Made by a program: the position numbers and the translations under genes. From Atractiella rhizophila (Eukaryota), in the NCBI GenBank assembly GCA_021432655.1, contig MU271615.1, forward strand, positions 1 to 38,967: 38,967 bases of DNA. Reading direction: 5' to 3'. The notes under the pieces were generated by a model that saw only the letters and a list, made by a program, of their open reading frames with translations, was not told the DNA's origin and searched no databases. Shown in pieces: positions 1-37,514 of the stretch; the stretch's first letter is position 1, and each line of letters begins with the position of its first letter.

Positions 1-1195
1 CGGCAGTAGGAGCAGAAGATGTGGGAGCGAAGGGCCGTTGGAAGAAGTACTCGAATCCTTCCTCTGCAGATAGCGCGCATGTCCAGATCGCTTTCGTTGG
101 AATTGGTGGTGGGACGGTTATACACTGGCCTCTTGTGGGAACGACAGAGTGTGGATGGTTCGAAGCGAGGTGAGGGAGAAGATGTGAGATGTAAGCGTTG
201 GTGGCGTGGACGATGGTCGGTGCACGGATGGATCCTCTGGGAGTGGAACAGGTGTAGATACCGCTTGAAGAGGGCGAGGAGATGGAGGTGCAGGGAGTGT
301 GTGTGTAGAGAGAGAAGTGGAGGAAGGGGAGGGAGGAGGTGAGAAAGAGGATGAAGTCGAAGAGGTGCGATACCAGTTTGCGTGGGAACAGGTTGTTGCC
401 GTCAGGCAGACAGAGTGCGGAATGTATCACTTCCTTCGACGCGCCGAGCTTCTATTCATATCCATCAGCATATCGTATCATCAAGGATCCTGGGCTTGTT
501 GGAGAGAAAACGAAAGCACACATCTTCTACCTGCCTTTCATCCAACCACACTAATCCCTCGACCTCCTTCCTCCCTGCCTCCGTCGCAGCCTCCAACTCC
601 ACTCTCACCTCCTCCGCCTCCTCTCGATTCTTAAAGATCTGCACTCTCCCTCCATTCGCCCAATCCACCTCCTTCTTCAAATTGTTCGTTTCCAAAAAAT
701 CGAGCACCTTGGAAAGCGAATACCTCTCCAAATCCACCGCTTGATGTGCAGCCTCTACACCGTGCTTAGAGGTGCAAGTAGCGAAGCCAAAGCACCCAGT
801 GGGGGCGAGATGGCCACCGTTCCTTCCTGAACGTTCAATCAATCCATCAGCACCTCGAATTTCAAGGAAAAGGGAGAAAACCCACCAGTAGCGCCTGAGC
901 AAAATTCCCTAGCCTCTAACATCGCGATCCTCAGCTTGTCGCCTCGAACTTTGAGCCCCTCGATCCCCCCTCGTCTTTGGAGGAGTTTCGCGAGCTCGTG
1001 CGCAAAGGATACGCCGGTGATTCCGCTCCCGAGGACGAGGATGTCGACTTCGTCGGGAAGGGGACTGTGCTCGCCATGGTTCGCGTGTGGACTAGGGAAT
1101 TCGAGCCAGTAGGATGGTGGAGCTGATGGGTTTGGGAGGGATGACGGTGGGAAGGAGACTGGGAGGGACGAGGCCACGGTTACATAGGATGCCAT
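1..1195 (-). CDS. FAD-dependent oxidoreductase, DAO family (3' end runs off the window)
   Basis: ATG at 1195. Rossmann motif DILVLGSGITG, then MLEAREFCSGATG, intron 827-885, then RNGGH. Later exon reads HATNAYISHLLP...VVPTRGQ...GFEYFFQRP, all typical of fungal DAO-family oxidoreductases. Confidence 0.9.
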
Positions 1196-1332
1196 GTTGG
1201 ATTGTTCTGGAGTCGACAAATTCAAATTGTTGCTCACTATCCGGTAGTTTATGACTAAAGGCATTCAGTCTGTTCTGGAGAATGAAGAACATAATTCTTA
1301 GCTGAGCACTCAAGTTCCCAGCAGCAGCCAAT

Positions 1333-2661
1333 ATGCTGTGCACACGATGCGCTTTCCCATTTACTCTCCACCGTCTCACCCTTCGGCAGTACTCCGTTCT
1401 CCCAGAAGGATCTACCAAGTACGAGTTCCATATTCCTTCGTCCTCAGTCATTCTCACGGCACAATACCGAATAAGTAGGACCCAAAAGAGAAAACGAGAG
1501 GAAGAGAAGGACACCTCAACTATCTCTGTCTGGGAGCCAGAAGAAAAGGAAGAGCTCCCATCCGACGACACAGCTTCCACACGAGGAAGAACCGATAACC
1601 ATCTCGAGCTCCTTTCACCTCGTCCGAACTCGCGGCGCTCAAGCACAAACATAGAATGGTATCGAGCTCCACGGCGGCACCGAACGTCAAGAACCACCGC
1701 GTCATCATCGTCCGGCTCACGCTCAGAGGGAGGAGGTGAACGCAAGTCGGACGTATTTCGACACGCCTTCGAACGCTTCGTCAGTCTCGATGTTGACCCA
1801 GAGCCTAGTCCCACCGCCAATCCACCGCAAGAACATCCCGACCCTGAAAACCACGACAAGTCTCGCCAATGGCTCAAGCTCAAGCCGTGGATTGGTCGAG
1901 AGATGATTCCTACGCTTCAAACGTTGAAGCTTCTTCGGGACCCTGAGCACCAGAAGGCCTTACGGCGAATTCGGGATAAGGAGCGGGAGGCGAAAAGGAA
2001 GTGGCGGAAACGAGTGGATATGAATAATCTTTTCTTGCGCGCTTCAAGGACTTTGCCTGGTTTTCGAGAACCTTTCAATCCTGCACCTCCTTTGAGAGAA
2101 ACCTTTGCAATCGGCATTCAGCTACCTAGATTGCTGACATCACCCCCTGCTTTGAACCTCGCTATGTGGGATCCGAACGATCGTTGGTCCCACAGGATAG
2201 CTCGGATTGATAGGGTTGATCGTGCGCTTCAATATTCCACAAACACAGACACGAAACCAAAGTTCAAAAAGGTGATCGCCTATTTCATCAAGAAGGAAGA
2301 TGCGGAAGATGCGGTCAAGAATGGGTTTCTATTCGAAGGGAAGAGATACGACGCTTGGTGGCCCGACAAACAGTCGGTCAAACAATGCATGCGGTGTCAA
2401 CAACTAAATCATCTCCTCGAAGATTGTAAAAGCCAACATCCGGTCTGCCCGTTCTGCTCAAAACCTCATTCTGCATCCGAATGTAACTTGACGAGGAAAA
2501 TAAAGACGGGATTCACTTGCGCTCTCTGTGGCGGAGATCATCCTTCTTTTCGCAGCTCAAAATGTCCAGTTTGGTGGCAGCATAGGGTGGCTTCGAAGGC
2601 TGCTTTGAGTTCCGAGTTAGCTGTTGATACCCAATCGCATGAATATCATGAGGAATCTTGA
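1333..2661 (+). CDS. Non-LTR retrotransposon ORF1 (Gag-like) related protein with three CCHC zinc knuckles; probably domesticated; putative mitochondrial presequence
   Basis: Open 442-aa frame. C-terminal CMRCQQLNHLLEDC / CPFCSKPHSASEC / CALCGGDHPSFRSSKC (2386-2565), preceded by VIAYFIKKEDAEDAVKNGFLFEG, matches the layout of fungal Tad1-type ORF1. Possible in-frame intron 1419-1478 (GTACGA...CTCAC...GTAG). No endonuclease/RT ORF follows. Confidence 0.7.
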   Translation: MLCTRCAFPFTLHRLTLRQYSVLPEGSTKYEFHIPSSSVILTAQYRISRTQKRKREEEKDTSTISVWEPEEKEELPSDDTASTRGRTDNHLELLSPRPNSRRSSTNIEWYRAPRRHRTSRTTASSSSGSRSEGGGERKSDVFRHAFERFVSLDVDPEPSPTANPPQEHPDPENHDKSRQWLKLKPWIGREMIPTLQTLKLLRDPEHQKALRRIRDKEREAKRKWRKRVDMNNLFLRASRTLPGFREPFNPAPPLRETFAIGIQLPRLLTSPPALNLAMWDPNDRWSHRIARIDRVDRALQYSTNTDTKPKFKKVIAYFIKKEDAEDAVKNGFLFEGKRYDAWWPDKQSVKQCMRCQQLNHLLEDCKSQHPVCPFCSKPHSASECNLTRKIKTGFTCALCGGDHPSFRSSKCPVWWQHRVASKAALSSELAVDTQSHEYHEES

Positions 2662-2790
2662 CTTCTAATTTTTGCACACCCTCATCGTTTGCGCTCCCTG
2701 AAAACAAACATGATGCTATTGCGAAGTGTGTACATGGAAATGGCGAATTGTCCACTGATGTCATCAAAAAAAACAGCGATAACCAGATCT

Positions 2791-5280
2791 CTATGCCCGC
2801 AGGTGAAGCAAAATCTCGTCGGATTTGCCCTGAATCACAGTTAGTTACTGAACAAATATTCTGAAAAAAAGAGAAAACAACCTTGTATCCCAGTTTCTTT
2901 TTCAAGCGTGCAACCTCTAAGTCCTCAAAATATTCATGGAGAGCTCGCGATTGCTGAGATAATCATATCAGCACATAATGTTCAGAACGCTGTAGCGGAA
3001 GAAGAACCTGGTACTTCTTCCTGCTGTTCGCCCACTCCACTTCTTCCTCCTGAATCTGCCTCTTCAACTTCTTGTTCTCCGCCTTCAGCTCCACGAGGGT
3101 CTTCTCCAAACTCGCCTTGGTGGCCTTGCCACCAGTACTGGCGAAGGAAGTAGTGATGGCTGGGAGAATATGAGATTTGAAACATTCTTGAAGACTAGTC
3201 TTGATAGGTTTGCTCAGTGAGGCGGCGTGAGACTGGAAAGCCTTTGTCAGAGCGGCAGCAATAATGGACGACGGGGAGCCTTCTTCCTCAATTCCCATTT
3301 CTGTCTCCAGTTCATTATCAGAAACCAAGCCCGACTTTGACCTTTTCGATTTGGGATTTGACTTTGGAAGGTCTTCAACCTCTTTGCGTTTCTTGCCCTG
3401 GGTCATGGCTAGCTGCGACTCGACCTCGACCACTTTTGACTCTGATCCCTTCCCATTCTTCTTCTCCTTTTTCGCTACTCTCTGAACGGGAGGGACCTGT
3501 TGAGCTTTCGGAACGTTGTTCTGGCGTTGTAACCGTTTCTCTTCTTCATCGACGTCCGATACCTCCTCGGATGGAAGAGAACAATCTACTTTGGACCTTT
3601 TAGCTTTCTTTGGAGGGGACTGGTCGGCTCTCTCCTCTTCATCGTTAGGCGCGTCTCGCGTTTTCCTCTTCAGGTTCCGATTTTTCTGAACAGGAAAGGG
3701 AGGGGATGAATGAAGAGGTTCGAGTTCGAGTTCGACGCCGACACCTGCAATCTTCCTCTTTCGTTTATTTGCGGCGTCTTTCGAACTCGCAGGCCCAGGT
3801 GCTGATTTTGTGACGATGACTTTTTCCTTGTGGCCCACATTTTCTTCCTCTATTCCGTCAGATTGGAGCTTCGAGCTCTTCACTCTCTTCGTAGGCCCGC
3901 CCTCCTCCTCGCCAGCGGCACCCTTCGTCCTTTTCCGCTTTGAACCCGTCTCTTTGTCGTCAGATGCAGCCGACACCTTCTTTGCCTTCTTCCTTAATTC
4001 TCGATCCACCTGTTCATTTTCTTCTTCCTCTTCGAGGGCCTTCTTTTCCTTTCCTGACTTCTTAACAGATATCTCGACCGGCATTTCTGGTTCCTTCTCT
4101 CTAACCTTGCCCTTCCGTTTAGTTTTCTCGACTGAATGTAGATCCCCCTTCACGTCCACGTCTTCATCCTGTTTCCGAAGTTGTTTCTTGCGCGTACCTT
4201 TTCTCGGTTGCTCCTCCACGTCTCCCTCGTCCTCTTCTTCCTCTACCACCTTTCGTTTGCTCCTCGCTCTCTTACTTGGCATCTCCTTCGCGAGAGTAGT
4301 GTCCTCTTTGCTCGTACGGTTCTTTCCCTTTGCCTTCCTTCTCTTCTCTGTCGACTCCCCATTTCCATCACTACCTCCAGCTTCTACAACCTCTACTGGA
4401 GTCAGGCCTCTCTTCCTCTTCGACTTCCCTTCCTTCTCCCCCTTCTTCTTCGATGGCGAGGAAATAGGAGGTCGCACAGTCTCCATCTCTCCAGCCGCCG
4501 TCTTGTTCCTATTCCGGCCCTTACTTGTGGGAGGAGGCGGGCGAACTGTCCCTTCCGAGCTATCGGTCTTCGTGCGCGTTCTGGTCCTCCCGTTTCGCGT
4601 TGTTGGAATTGTGGGCACCTCATCGACCTCGACCTGAGGAGGAGAGTGCGGATTTGTATTTGGATTGCGAGAGGTCGCCGCGTTCGCTGCTGCTCGTGAG
4701 GTGGACGCTGGATGGGGAGGTTCGTCTACCATTAGAGGTGCAGTGGAGAAATCGAAAGAAGCTTCTGTGCCATCTGAATCTGAATCGAACGTTGTATACT
4801 GAGTTCCGGCGGTGTTCTTTCCCACGCGCGCGTTCGTATTCTTTGTAGTGGAGACTGAGGTCTGCTTCTCGCGCTCAATTAGCTTTCTCTTCATGCAAAG
4901 TGATATAGCAAAACGAAAGATGAATAAATAAACGGAGACATGGATATATTGGATCACAGCGTACTTTTGGTGAGTTTGCACGGTTATCAACATTGTGCCC
5001 CTTCAAAGCGCTTGCCGCGTTCGATTTTTGGACGTTTGGCACACCTGGAAGGTGTGTAGGTACTACGTAGTTCTCCCATACCCTATCACCACATCAGAAC
5101 CATAAGTATTAGCGTAAGTAGCTTATGCGAGCAAGGCCGTTTGAGTTGGAACACGGAGAAGACGCACTTGAGATCCCCTTTGATCCGTTTCCTCAGCTTC
5201 TCCTCGTGCGTTAGGATGCGATTTGGGTCTGGAGCAGGCGATTTTCGACGTAAGATGACATTGGGCGAGTCCCAGGGCAT
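2791..5280 (-). CDS. Hypothetical low-complexity Lys/Glu/Arg-rich protein with C-terminal coiled coil, likely nuclear
   Basis: Long ORF 2963-4993 plus spliced small exons: MPWDSPNV...IKGDLK|VWENYVV...NSPK|TSVSTTK... and ...RKKYQ|QSRALHEYFEDLEVARLKKKLGYK|GKSDEILLHLRA*. Many basic NLS-like clusters. Start codon uncertain. Confidence 0.7.
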
Positions 5281-5668
5281 TCCTTACGTCCAACCATGGA
5301 CCGTTAGCTGTGAGCAATGAGCTTCGGAGGGCATACGGATTGGAGACATGTGGACATCCATCTTGCCAATTTCTCACTAATTAACCGAGTTATCTGCACT
5401 GTCCAGCTCCGAATGCCCTGAGCCTAGCCCCCAAACACGTCCTTGTGAACTTGGAGGTCTCGATCGCGAGTAACTGTCAGAGGAGTAACAATGCGACGAC
5501 GCGCGCTCACCCGCGCCCTCTGCGCTTCGGCCACGTAAACGGATTGAGAAATTCAGTGACTTCATTCTTCGACCACTTTACTTTTCTTCGCCACTCTCCA
5601 ACAGCTACCCACTGTAGCCTACCACTTCTTAGGAGACCCTTACTAACTCAGAGATATTGGTTGCAAAA

Positions 5669-6712
5669 ATGTCGTTCCTGGGTCTTGATTTCAGTTGGTT
5701 GTGGAATATTCTTGCCTCTTTGGGTACGTCGCTCCTTTGCCACAGTCACAGTAATGGTGGCTCTGTGGGGTTTGCGTTTAGGCATCCTTTGGAGAGAGAA
5801 CTGACATTTCTCTGGTAGGGCTCATGAATAAGAATGCAAAGATTCTCTTCTTGGGGCTCGATAACGCGTTTGTCCCGCCTTCTCCTCTTCCAAACTTTTC
5901 TTACTTGTACCGGTGCTTCTAGCGGAAAGACTGTGCGCTTTTTTTCTGGTATTCGCTGTTTGGGGGTATCGAGAGAGTGAATGGGTGATTGACAGACCTT
6001 ACTCCACATGTTGAAGAACGACCGACTGGCTACCCTGCAACCGACCCTCCACCCAAGTGCGCTTTACTCTTAGACTCTTCAAAGGTGTAACTGAGCCGCT
6101 CTCTACTGGGTTATAGCGTCAGAGGAACTGGCTATTGGGAACATTAAGTTCACCACATATGACCTTGGAGGACACGAGATTGGTATGTCTTTATCTTTCC
6201 TTCTTCCTCTCTAGATTGTGTCGATCAATTGCTCATAACGTGTGCTGTGTTTCAGCTCGCCGACTATGGAAAGACTACTTTCCCGAAGTCGACGGTATCG
6301 TCTTCCTCGTCGATAGTGCAGACAACGAACGGTTCCGAGAGTCCAAGCAGGAATTAGATAACCTGCTGAGCATCGAACAGCTTAGCAATGTGCCCTTCCT
6401 CATTCTCGGAAACAAGATAGACGCGATGGGAGCCGTGAGCGAGGATGAACTGAGACACCACTTGGGAATGTATCAGACCACTGGAAAGGTGCGTCTTCTG
6501 GTTTATTCTGCAAGTAAATGGAAACCTGAATTAATTTGTTTGTGGTGATAGGGAAAAGTACCTCTCAATGATATTAGACCTATTGAGATCTTCATGTGCT
6601 CTGTAGTGATGAGGCAGGGGTATGGTGAAGGTATGTCCTCCGTCTCCGCTTCTTTTACTTTACTCATGGAGTCGCCGAATCAGGCTTCCGCTGGCTGGCA
6701 CAATACATCTAA
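5669..6712 (+). CDS. SAR1: Small COPII GTPase Sar1
   Basis: Spliced: [94 protein letters not shown]...LGNKID...[20 protein letters not shown]. Confidence 0.97.
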
Positions 6713-7003
6713 ACCCGAACTCCTCTCCGAATCCACTGGCTTGAGATTTCCTTACTGTCCATTTAAACCTCATACATTTCCATTTTCTCTTCATTCTTGT
6801 CATCGTTGTCGTCGGTCGGGTTCAGACTCGTTGCATGGTTCGCCAACTTATTCTTTCTTTCTCTTCTCGTTGAAGTTCGAGGTGACGTTCATGATATCTT
6901 TATGATTTACATGAACCAGAATCGATAAACGCTCTAACTCCACATCCCTCCTGGGAACCTTTTATCTTTGAGTCGCCGACATATTCCAATGTAAGGTTTG
7001 CGT

Positions 7004-8191
7004 TCAAGTTCTAGAAGTCCTCAGATCGGTCAATCCCACCGTCTTAAAATCTTCAATATCCAACGCAAGTCTAACGATTTCCTCCCACCTCAACTGTCCT
7101 TTACTATGTCTCCTGAATCCATACAACCTCACAAATTCTGTCTCTTCCTCCTCTACCTCATTCCCCAATCCCTGAAAAATGATCGACTCGTCTTCCTCAC
7201 AGTGCAGCGCGATCAGACAAGTTGTGATGAGTATGTCAGCGGTGAGACCTGTGATTGCCGTGTGCTGGGATGGGGACGGAGACGCGAATCGGTGGAGCCG
7301 ATAGGGACGTGAGGAGAGCCAGGTCAGGTCTTGGTATGAGTATTCCAGGGCGGCGGTGCTACGACGGTTGCGGTGGCGACAGAACTGATAGAGTGATGGA
7401 GGATGCTGTGCGGTGAGAAGGAGAGGAGGGAGAGGAGGGGGAGGTGGAAGATGGCGTCTACTTCGTCTGGGTTCGCTTGGAGGGAAGAGAGGATGGTAGT
7501 GCTCGGAGATGTGGATGTGGATGCGAGGAGGTACACTACAGGGATGACGACGAGGAGGGTGCGGGAGGTTGTTGCGGGTAGGGTAGTCAAGTAGAGGAGT
7601 GGAGAGGAGGGAGGAAGAGGGAGACCAATCTCTTCATGCGCTTCTCGTAGCTGTCATGCGGGTGGAGTGTTAAGCGTTGCATTGGGGTGACTGAGGAAGA
7701 ACTCACCGCAGTCTCCCTCACGGTAGCATCTGTTTCATCTACCTTTCCTCCAGGAAGCGCAGCTGCATTCCATTGTCCGTCAGCATATTCTATTTCACGT
7801 CAGAAAATGGGAATGTAAACACACTCTCTCCGGGATGCGACCGTAACTTCTTCGACCTTGTAGTAAGCGTCACTTGCAGATCACCATTCTCATTGATGGA
7901 GAGGAGAACGAGAACAGCCGCCAGTCTCTTTCGCGGGAAGCTATCTACACCAGCGCGTTCTCAGTCATTTGTCATTGCTGGAAGCACCGAGAAGCGGCAC
8001 GGAGGGACAGACTCTTGTTTTGCTGGTGGTGCTACGTATGAACTCAGATTCTCGATATACTGTTTCGCTAGAGCGTTTGGTGCGGGATTCAAAGACGAAT
8101 AATCTATGGTTGTCCGAATCGGTTGGGCATCGAACTGAGCAGGAGCCGGAATTGTAGCTGCAACTGCTGCTGTAAGCTGGATCTGGGCCAT
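7004..8191 (-). CDS. Nudix hydrolase, CoA pyrophosphatase (Pcd1/NUDT7-like); apparent 1-nt frameshift near 7345-7440
   Basis: AAVLVLL...LTTRSKKLRSHPGE|ALPGGKVDETD...LREAHEEIGL (Nudix box with the CoA-type LTxR motif), then NPDEVDAIFHLPL. The conserved-looking tail YRLHRF...ITGLTADILI lies in a different frame. Confidence 0.85.
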
Positions 8192-35712: not shown

Positions 35713-35897
35713 GTTGAGATGCTCAAAAATGGATTTCCTGAGCCCTTTTCCGGCCGTCGAACAAAGAAAATATCTGGTTCCGCGTTTCGATCAGTTCAAA
35801 AAGGACCACGACAAGGAAACATTCTTCGTCGACAGGTTGAATATTGAGTTAGTTATAGTGAGCAAGATATATTTCTAGAGGTTGCGTAGAGAAGGGT

Positions 35898-37514
35898 ATG
35901 GTCCTTAGTGCGTGTCCCTTAATAAATCATGAGGCAGACGAAGAATTGACTGCAAACGCGAGATCAGTCAACAACCTCAAATTCTCCTGCCAATCCTGTA
36001 TTTCAGGTCACCGGTCCTCCAACTGTCAACACCTCGAGCGCACTCTCTACGAAATCCGGAAAAAAGGACGTCCGATTTCCCAATGCGTTGATTGCAGGCA
36101 GGCAAGGAAGGGAAAGGGGATCCACGCGAAATGCGTCTGCGAGAATGCAGTGAGAGAGGTGGAGAGGGATCTTATCGTTCTCAAGAATGGAATTAGCGAC
36201 GCGAGTGTAGAAGGTGAGGACAATCCGTTTGAGAAACTGGGACTTTTTCCTCCCACCACCGCGACAAGCCTCTCCGCGGCAAATCAATCATCACCACCGA
36301 CATCTGGCACCGCCAACACTGCCATTCCACAAAGGGCAACGACAAAGGTGTCCATCACCTCCTTGCTCAATCCATGTTCCTGCGCAACCAGCGGATTATG
36401 CGACTGTGGAACACGCTCTGCCATACTTGGGAAGATGACACCAGCTCAGAAGAGGAAGCTCATTGCCGCGAAGCGAGCGATGAAGCGCGCAGAGAAGGAC
36501 AAGATCAGATCCTCATCCATCTCTGCTTCAGTGACTCCCGCTCCTCCTGCCACGAACGCACCTGCGGTTTCCGCAGGCTGCTGTTGCAAGAAATCCGCCG
36601 AGCCATCCCCTACTCCTGCTCCTACCTCTCCTGCTCCCGCACCGTTAAAACTGCCGGAGCTCGACTCACCCACGTCGACTGTGTCCTTCTCTCTCTCCAA
36701 TGATTCTCTCCCTCCTACCCCCGCGCCAGGATCAACGCTGTGCTGGTGTGGCGATGCATGCGCTTGTGTAGGATGCAAGGTTCACGACCCTCTGGGAATG
36801 AAGAAAGATAGGAATGGGAAGGGACGACTTGGCTGTGGAGGACAGGGTATTGAGCCCATTCCTGAGATGGCGGAGGGGATGGTCCTCCCAGACTTGGTGG
36901 GAGCGGATGCTGATGGGCTGCGGCGTTTCTTCTGGACCGAAGGAGAGGAGCTGGCGCCTCTTGGTGCTGTTGCGTCTGCAGTTGAAGTCGAGCTCGAAAA
37001 TGGCGCGAGAGATTCAGGAGGAGGGAATGAGAGGATCACACGTGCGAGGAGGAGCTCGTCCATTCGCCTTCCCAGTCTTAGCACACTGAATCTAGGAGAT
37101 CTTGCCAGTGGCAACTTTGAGAATATCCCAACCGAAGAGTGGAAGGCTTTGGGACGTCTCGTCGAAGTAGATCACGGTATTGCGTCTCAGTTCCCTCGGC
37201 TCTTGCCTCCTCTTACGAACAATTCCGAGAACACAGTACTCCAACCTCTCCCTCCGATCTTGGGACAACCATTGAAACCGCTAGACGGTGCTGGGGGTTG
37301 TTGTGGCTCTAGAGACACTGAAGTTAAGACGGGAGCGGACACCAGGCCACCTGGTGTTGGTTGTTGCAGCCTCGATGTTGGGATGGATATCGATATCGAT
37401 GATAATCTGCCTGATGATGGGTTGTGCGATGAAGACGCGGAAGGGGAGGATGATCCGGACTTTCTCATGGCTTGCAATTGTGGTGCTGGTTGCCCTTGTG
37501 GAACGAACAAATAA
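35898..37514 (+). CDS. Copper-fist transcription factor (Ace1/Mac1/Cuf1 family)
   Basis: After removing intron 35908-35967: MVLINNLKFSCQSCISGHRSSNCQHLERTLYEIRKKGRPISQCVDCR...HAKCVC. Internal CWCGDACACVGCKVH (CxCx3CxCx2Cx2H) motif. Confidence 0.92.
   Translation: MVLSACPLINHEADEELTANARSVNNLKFSCQSCISGHRSSNCQHLERTLYEIRKKGRPISQCVDCRQARKGKGIHAKCVCENAVREVERDLIVLKNGISDASVEGEDNPFEKLGLFPPTTATSLSAANQSSPPTSGTANTAIPQRATTKVSITSLLNPCSCATSGLCDCGTRSAILGKMTPAQKRKLIAAKRAMKRAEKDKIRSSSISASVTPAPPATNAPAVSAGCCCKKSAEPSPTPAPTSPAPAPLKLPELDSPTSTVSFSLSNDSLPPTPAPGSTLCWCGDACACVGCKVHDPLGMKKDRNGKGRLGCGGQGIEPIPEMAEGMVLPDLVGADADGLRRFFWTEGEELAPLGAVASAVEVELENGARDSGGGNERITRARRSSSIRLPSLSTLNLGDLASGNFENIPTEEWKALGRLVEVDHGIASQFPRLLPPLTNNSENTVLQPLPPILGQPLKPLDGAGGCCGSRDTEVKTGADTRPPGVGCCSLDVGMDIDIDDNLPDDGLCDEDAEGEDDPDFLMACNCGAGCPCGTNK

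Follow-up and report, generated by a model that had tools for sequence, protein, structure and literature searches.

How does the gene for a retrotransposon-like zinc-knuckle protein come to stand by itself between ordinary host genes, and is it kept there or merely left behind? This question is raised by an open reading frame (ORF) on contig MU271615.1 of Atractiella rhizophila (GenBank assembly GCA_021432655.1), which we analysed over its whole length; "the window" below means this stretch of 38,967 nucleotides (nt), which is the entire scaffold of 39 kb. At positions 1333-2661 of the plus strand, the sole long ORF in that stretch runs for 442 codons plus a stop and, as an initial annotation made from the bare sequence had described, is intact and ends in three CCHC knuckles that can be read directly. 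The ORF corresponds to the deposited hypothetical protein BT69DRAFT_1287335 of A. rhizophila (423 aa), which is identical to our translation save for 19 codons that the gene model cuts out as an intron. The evidence set out below indicates that this protein very probably derives from the first ORF (ORF1) of a long interspersed nuclear element (LINE), and suggests, with less assurance, that the host has retained it for a role in RNA binding.

To place the protein we turned to relatives that lie beside genes for reverse transcriptase (RT). Briefly, a well-aligned subfamily of nine HMMER matches to the ORF protein (alignment A3) was used to scan metagenome contigs; 190 relatives were confirmed and 80 loci were kept, of which we examined the 45 that extend ~1.4 kb or more beyond the match on its downstream side and excluded 35 as too short. 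At 37 of these 45 loci, Exo_endo_phos_2 or Exo_endo_phos, RVT_1 and/or RNase_H were found in the longest of the plus-strand ORFs downstream, and the typical second ORF (ORF2) is a single frame of 1250-1350 aa that begins at or overlaps the ORF1 stop. Among the remaining eight, five have a decayed ORF2 adjoining ORF1, one has RT 3.5 kb off and two have none of these; ORF2, intact or decayed, thus lies directly downstream in 42 of the 45. The two loci without any ORF2 trace differ in kind: at L022:8001-9331 the ORF1 match is split over two frames and followed by a CorA-like gene, with no ORF2 trace in 8 kb downstream, and at L005:6-1070 ORF1 is cut at the contig end, with no ORF2 trace in 4.2 kb downstream.

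For comparison with the A. rhizophila protein, ORF1 was extracted at 30 linked loci and omitted at the other seven; one of the 30 (L009) was left out of the resulting profile because its knuckle array is broken. The profile of 29 RT-linked ORF1s matches residues 306-416 of the ORF protein with 50.5 bits (E = 1e-14); the same profile scored on no shuffle of the ORF protein (0 of 1000) and on no other window ORF (0 of 86). An HHpred-type comparison, run as hhalign against the alignment of RT-linked ORF1s, gave a probability of 98% over spliced residues 292-395 and, for the whole ORF protein, no homology beyond them. Furthermore, all 30 RT-linked ORF1s match window positions 2221-2622 in tblastn (E from 8e-14 to 3e-4). 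Three knuckles were found in 29 of the 30 by a relaxed pattern (Cx2C, 3-4, H, 4-7, C), mostly with spacings as in the ORF, and the array sits close to the ORF1 stop; L055, for example, is a 442-aa ORF1 with its array at 367-419, and the ORF protein, with 31 residues after its array, has a matching layout. Together with the domain order described next, these results uphold the LINE ORF1-type assignment of the initial annotation, and we regard it as highly likely that the ORF is descended from ORF1, its C-terminal 110-150 residues corresponding to the type I ORF1p of a Tad1/I-like LINE (with APE endonuclease, RT and RNase H), the homology to RT-linked ORF1s covering residues ~290-416.

The series Cx2Cx4Hx4C, Cx2Cx3Hx4C and Cx2Cx3Hx6C near the C-terminus is the classical ORF1 array of Tad1/I/Jockey-type elements. 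The array of the ORF protein departs from it at one place, the last interval of knuckle 3, where the spacing is x7 here and mostly x6 in relatives; in an alignment with relatives (41 sequences), none of the 12 zinc ligands varies. Just one further CCHC-like string occurs in the window; this string, CQSCISGHRSSNC (position 35988), is unrelated to the knuckle gene: it begins at residue 43 of the ORF of a copper-fist DNA-binding domain protein (35862-37511, plus strand), whose domain was scored on its residues 36-71 and spans the string.

Ahead of the knuckles, an AlphaFold2 model built with an alignment of relatives of the ORF protein (alignment A1; mean pLDDT, the predicted local distance difference test score, 63.8) shows disorder across most of residues 1-170 and a beta-alpha-beta domain at residues 254-346 that ends five residues before knuckle 1. 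Foldseek against the Protein Data Bank (PDB) returned no match at E <= 1e-3; its top rows were nearly all RNA-recognition motifs (RRMs), including L1 ORF1p 2ldy and 2w7a, at E 0.015-0.2. VIA-align, run over 48,161 chains, likewise laid residues 254-349 on RRMs (Z 6.4 for TDP-43 RRM1 and Z 6.3 for the L1 ORF1p RRM 2w7a_B). The helical region between the disordered part and this domain is strongly basic (pI 11.2 over spliced residues 151-225, approximately 170-244 unspliced), and a three-copy self-association model of residues 165-250 gave no verdict either way. Within the RRM helix, where relatives have a single 'PEDAN'-type motif, EDAEDA is encoded by a 9-nt unit that is perfectly duplicated in tandem (GGAAGATGC; 2.2 copies; window 2295-2314).

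An RRM immediately upstream of one or more CCHC knuckles is what defines type I ORF1p in the classes of Khazina and Weichenrieder, as quoted in PMC4120745, which reports such proteins in the I, Jockey, R1, Tad1, plant L1 and L2 clades. The ORF protein resembles them in having its RRM directly before the knuckles, a three-knuckle array near the C-terminus, significant profile similarity and a length (442 aa) inside the 300-600 aa range of the RT-linked ORF1s. It differs from them in lacking ORF2 and element ends, in its spliced intron, in its apparently single locus among host genes, in having one detected RRM, in its N-terminal 290 residues, which could not be aligned, and in the x7 spacing of knuckle 3. 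An L1-type (type II) ORF1p of the Transposase_22 family (PF02994) was considered and rejected, as Pfam gave no match to it, knuckles take the place of its C-terminal domain (CTD), and the RRM is like 2w7a at fold level only.

Searches of annotated proteins place the ORF protein at a distance from everything found. Pfam returned no family at E <= 10, zf-CCHC (PF00098), PF07530 and PF02994 included, and a sequence search of the PDB gave a single chance row (E 0.56). A HMMER pass over 1.84 billion representatives produced 427 matches at E <= 1e-3, of which the protein itself was the only one to reach E <= 1e-10; all non-self matches listed align within residues 268-440, and for the first 290 residues no relatives were found among the HMMER matches listed or by hhalign. 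The nearest known relative among the annotated proteins found is ~33% identical over 110 residues. By the relaxed pattern, 65 of the 78 non-self matches listed carry at least three knuckles, most of them with the same three spacings. Pfam scans of 77 matches placed PRE_C2HC above cut-off in nine, one of which (P0007) also has RVT_1, and a PHD finger in one other match. P0007 itself (824 aa) has a complete triple-knuckle array at 225-281 and another at 625-680; an RVT_1 segment and PRE_C2HC lie between the two, and the gene model looks like nested or tandem LINE copies merged by gene calling.

Atlas neighbours of residues 255-442, which we take as leads only, score 0.92 and 0.90 and bear the names 'Gag-like protein (Fragment)' and 'CCHC-type domain-containing protein' (Basidiomycota) and 'Nucleic-acid-binding protein from transposon X-element' (Arthropoda). 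A word-seeded search of 5.8 billion clusters found no protein at 50-90% identity and, at near lengths, the protein alone; the same kind of search of longer proteins with residues 255-442 gave nothing, and with profile A1 it gave seven matches, unnamed or 'hypothetical'. Metagenome contigs searched with the ORF protein alone yielded 34 pattern matches and no confirmed relatives.

At the locus itself, the parts that a LINE would need beside ORF1 are missing. None of the 86 other scaffold ORFs of at least 110 aa contains an RT or endonuclease domain (no RVT, no Exo_endo_phos); the families found in them are DAO, Arf, Metallophos, PAP2, Acyl_transf_3, Glyco_trans_2_3, AMP-binding, FmdA_AmdA, Copper-fist and adh_short. 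A tblastn search with 30 ORF2 queries against the 39-kb scaffold reached a best E of 0.23, far from the ORF. The repeat search returned chance-level repeats of 9-14 nt, none flanking the ORF, and hence no target-site duplication; after the ORF there is no poly(A) tail, only a run of eight A residues (A8) ~105 nt past the stop. No second copy of the ORF exists within the window. The close spacing and the lack of ORF2 and of a poly(A) tail, on which the initial annotation had built its case, are thus confirmed, with 137 nt to the divergent ATG, 129 nt to the convergent stop and no RT or endonuclease trace, and for the 39-kb scaffold the stand-alone status holds. Since ORF2 and element ends are absent from the locus, the ORF is best described as ORF1-derived and not as the ORF1 of a current element.

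The ORF is transcribed and spliced. The evidence comes from sequencing run X5, of unrecorded type, which contains 0.75 of the sampled words of the stretch. Across window 1-8000, short canonical introns are missing from its contigs in each gene, at 15 listed joints (GT..AG in plus-strand genes, CT..AC in minus-strand genes); from these intron-skipping contigs alone we infer that X5 behaves as cDNA. The deepest X5 stretch by far is an Arf-family GTPase gene (5380-7100, plus strand) with six short GT..AG introns, for which spliced contigs also occur in runs X1-X3 at 96-99% identity. Over the ORF, X5 depth is present in every bin from 1336 to 2670, one contig (record 20) covers 1838-2648, and another joins 1418 to 1476, matching the deposited gene model. 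The initial annotation had put a 60-nt intron at 1419-1478; the intron is there and is spliced in X5 contigs, with its 3' end at 1475, which makes it 57 nt long, 3 nt shorter than proposed. An AAG|TAG at the 3' end of the intron is a possible tandem acceptor, and the 60-nt version was not seen in contigs. The intron keeps the reading frame and contains no stop codon, so that the ORF stays open if it is retained.

The contig that shows this joint (record 19) consists of pieces 674-825 and 885-1418, followed by 40 nt after 1476 (to 1516), and so unites exons of the neighbouring DAO-family gene (intron 826-884, CT..AC) with the spliced 5' end of the ORF. Its passage through the 137-nt spacer implies that the transcription units of these divergent genes adjoin or overlap, though a contig spanning two genes does not demonstrate one single transcript, and it suggests a bidirectional promoter region common to the ORF and the DAO-family gene. 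The divergent gene has a further in-frame minus-strand ATG at 1264, which leaves its true start unsettled. Ungapped short contigs from other runs also fall on the ORF (X1, 0 differences in 151 nt; X2, 4 in 125 nt and 6 in 186 nt; X3, 5 in 257 nt), and their identity of 97-100% indicates that close strains carry the ORF too. On the opposite strand of the N-terminal half, a 274-codon stop-to-stop frame runs antisense to the ORF (window 1095-1916, minus strand); it has no Pfam family and is probably a by-product of regional composition.

Table 1. Layout of the ORF1-derived gene, its product and its immediate surroundings (window positions; residues are those of the unspliced 442-codon frame)
Feature	Position	Strand	Details
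Exon 1	1333..1418	+	ATG at 1333; 28 codons + 2 nt; no relatives; X5 contig record 19 stops the exon at 1418
Intron	1419..1475	+	57 nt, GT..AG, spliceosomal; X5 joint 1418 to 1476 and 19 codons absent from the deposited protein
Exon 2	1476..2661	+	Includes stop codon 2659-2661; X5 depth, and contig record 20 over 1838-2648
N-terminal part, residues 1-172	1333..1848	+	S/T/P/R/K-rich; predicted disordered; pLDDT <50 over most; no detectable homologue
Two long predicted helices, residues 173-202 and 204-240	1849..2052	+	AlphaFold2 model; strongly basic
RRM-like domain, residues ~254-346	2092..2370	+	DSSP, pLDDT, Foldseek, VIA-align
CCHC knuckle 1, CMRCQQLNHLLEDC	2386..2427	+	Cx2Cx4Hx4C; C352 to C365; pLDDT >90
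CCHC knuckle 2, CPFCSKPHSASEC	2446..2484	+	Cx2Cx3Hx4C; C372 to C384; pLDDT >90
CCHC knuckle 3, CALCGGDHPSFRSSKC	2518..2565	+	Cx2Cx3Hx7C; C396 to C411; pLDDT >90
Short C-terminal tail	2566..2658	+	31 residues past the last knuckle; predicted helix 412-431
Divergent DAO-family gene	ATG 1193-1195	-	GxGxxG motif in exon 1; DAO match in a later exon
Spacer to divergent DAO-family gene	1196..1332	.	137 nt; crossed by one X5 contig
Spacer to convergent gene	2662..2790	.	129 nt; A8 run only; no ORF2 similarity
Convergent gene	2791-5280	-	732-aa K/E/S-rich low-complexity protein (read after removal of the introns shown by X5 contigs); stop codon 2791-2793; four introns in X5 contigs; no Pfam family

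The differences between X5 and the window offer a first look at constraint. Within 1838-2648 there are four, all at third codon positions (K389K, I390M, G393G and G400G), of which three are synonymous and one is conservative, and they are clustered within 34 nt; a minor X5 contig has, in addition, an in-frame 3-nt deletion at 1700. In the convergent K/E-rich gene, 7 of the 17 listed differences are synonymous and 10 non-synonymous, and in-frame 3-nt deletions occur as well. The comparison is of the differences listed, with 114 more lying outside it.

What, then, is the ORF? Our preferred reading is that it descends from the ORF1 of a Tad1/I-type non-LTR (long terminal repeat) retrotransposon, is immobilised and has lost ORF2, and that it would now occupy one locus between ordinary host genes, with a transcription unit abutting or overlapping that of the divergent gene and with its intron spliced out. 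Its product would bind single-stranded RNA by means of the basic helices, the RRM and the three zinc knuckles and would act as an RNA-binding or chaperone protein, and the host would keep the gene by selection for this RNA role; the targets could be cellular RNAs, or RNAs of resident LINEs as with L1TD1 in mammals. Domestication of this kind is plausible, and we give exaptation as an RNA-binding host gene a probability of roughly 0.45. The open 1.3-kb frame, the intact ligands and the native-like stop fit a kept gene without proving one. The full loss of ORF2, target-site duplication and tail, and the lack of any close relative, fit it as well, and so does the used intron, because an element copied through RNA would not keep it.

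Several points weigh on the other side. No orthologue was found in any other species among annotated proteins, nor in metagenome contigs, and conservation over time is for this reason not established for the ORF. The share of synonymous differences (three of four, compared with 7 of 17 in the neighbour) leans towards constraint but is not significant, there being too few sites. The structural matches to RRMs are middling only (Z ~6), and the parent LINE family or unannotated copies may be present in the same genome. Expression of the ORF may be a by-product of the neighbour's promoter, and an in-frame, stop-free intron might reflect splicing by chance in a relic that has not decayed. Finally, solo ORF1s without an ORF2 trace do exist, the two such loci among 45 (L005 and L022) giving a rough base rate.

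In a rival reading the ORF would be an undecayed relic of a LINE that inserted between two host genes and lost ORF2 and tail by deletion; disabling mutations would so far have missed ORF1, which would have no host function and be transcribed only by way of the divergent promoter. We consider this a genuine possibility, albeit a doubtful one: the ORF1 ancestry seen through the RT-linked loci, the profile and tblastn supports it, as do the missing orthologue, the transcription unit that abuts the neighbour's in record 19, the two ORF1s elsewhere that lack ORF2 and the weak signal for constraint from single-nucleotide differences. It has more difficulty in accounting for a locus from which the traces of ORF2, target-site duplication and poly(A) have all gone, yet in which the 1.3-kb frame, the 12 ligands and the native-like stop are intact. 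The nearest relative, at its low identity, fits an old insertion better than a young one, unless the parent family has simply not been sampled; the ORF has acquired an intron, which is used; and the solo ORF1 of L022 is frame-shifted, as a relic should be.

Mobility offers a further explanation, according to which the ORF would be an ORF1-only element that is still or was recently mobile with RT borrowed in trans, as in the non-autonomous LINE HeT-A of Drosophila, or else a retrocopy of a prematurely polyadenylated ORF1 transcript. A complete ORF1 with a native-like stop, and the A8 run beyond it, are in keeping with this; we nevertheless judge it improbable, given that no target-site duplication surrounds the ORF, that the two spacers leave just 137 nt upstream and 129 nt downstream as room for untranslated regions, that copying through RNA would remove a spliced intron, and that neither a second copy in 39 kb nor an annotated protein at least 50% identical was found. 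That the ORF is an ordinary cellular CCHC RNA-binding protein (Gis2/CNBP, Air1/2 or a lineage-specific one) which merely resembles ORF1 is very improbable, for while CCHC knuckles are widespread and the N-terminal 290 residues are without transposable-element relatives, Pfam finds no family at E <= 10 and zf-CCHC fails even there, the x4 spacing between C and H occurs in knuckle 1 only, with x3 in knuckles 2 and 3 as in the ORF1 array, and the homology, which is with RT-linked ORF1s, takes in RRM strands ahead of the knuckles.

Exaptation, if it is the right reading, would have a precedent in L1TD1, a mammalian RNA-binding host gene domesticated from L1 ORF1 (PMC4161310, PMC11925450 and PMC11014241). 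Both genes are coding sequences derived from a LINE ORF1, with RNA binding predicted in the case of the ORF. L1TD1 comes from a type II ORF1p (coiled coil, RRM and CTD, no knuckles), whereas the ORF comes from type I, and L1TD1 has mammal-wide orthologues and measured selection, whereas no orthologue of the ORF was found. A second precedent is fungal: the EKA effector family of Blumeria graminis (AVRk1/AVRa10), which according to PMC4641428 is derived from LINE ORF1 and proposed to have been recruited by the host. The EKA genes are, in the same account, truncated ORF1s without the C-terminal nucleic-acid-binding half and form a large multi-copy family (PMC4641428); the ORF conserves that half and was seen in one copy in the 39-kb window. 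PRE_C2HC (PF07530) proteins and the arthropod 'transposon X-element' proteins are among the significant relatives of the ORF (9 of 77 matches; Atlas 0.90), from which it differs in that its protein fails PF07530 at E <= 10.

A literature search on the domestication of fungal non-LTR ORF1s with zinc knuckles brought up only the EKA work and a paper on Drosophila telomeres, neither of which describes the ORF, and the literature on A. rhizophila, judged from most of the titles found, concerns ecology and taxonomy, with none on its transposons. Tentatively, the ORF may be a fungal counterpart of L1TD1 built from a type I ORF1p: a single-copy host gene of Atractiellomycetes with a gained intron, a new N-terminal half and a bidirectional promoter region shared with a host gene, whose product might serve the cell as an RNA chaperone or regulate the RNAs of resident LINEs.

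Should the ORF be a mere relic, it would be an ordinary by-product of LINE decay, and the value of this analysis would lie in correcting an annotation, from 'hypothetical protein' to 'LINE ORF1-derived RRM/CCHC protein'. Host genes from LINE ORF1 are few in number. If the preferred reading of a retained host gene is true, an early-diverging basidiomycete lineage would have an intact, expressed type I ORF1p that contains an intron and lacks ORF2; this would represent a second route of ORF1 exaptation and would provide a handle on what three-knuckle ORF1 proteins do alone.

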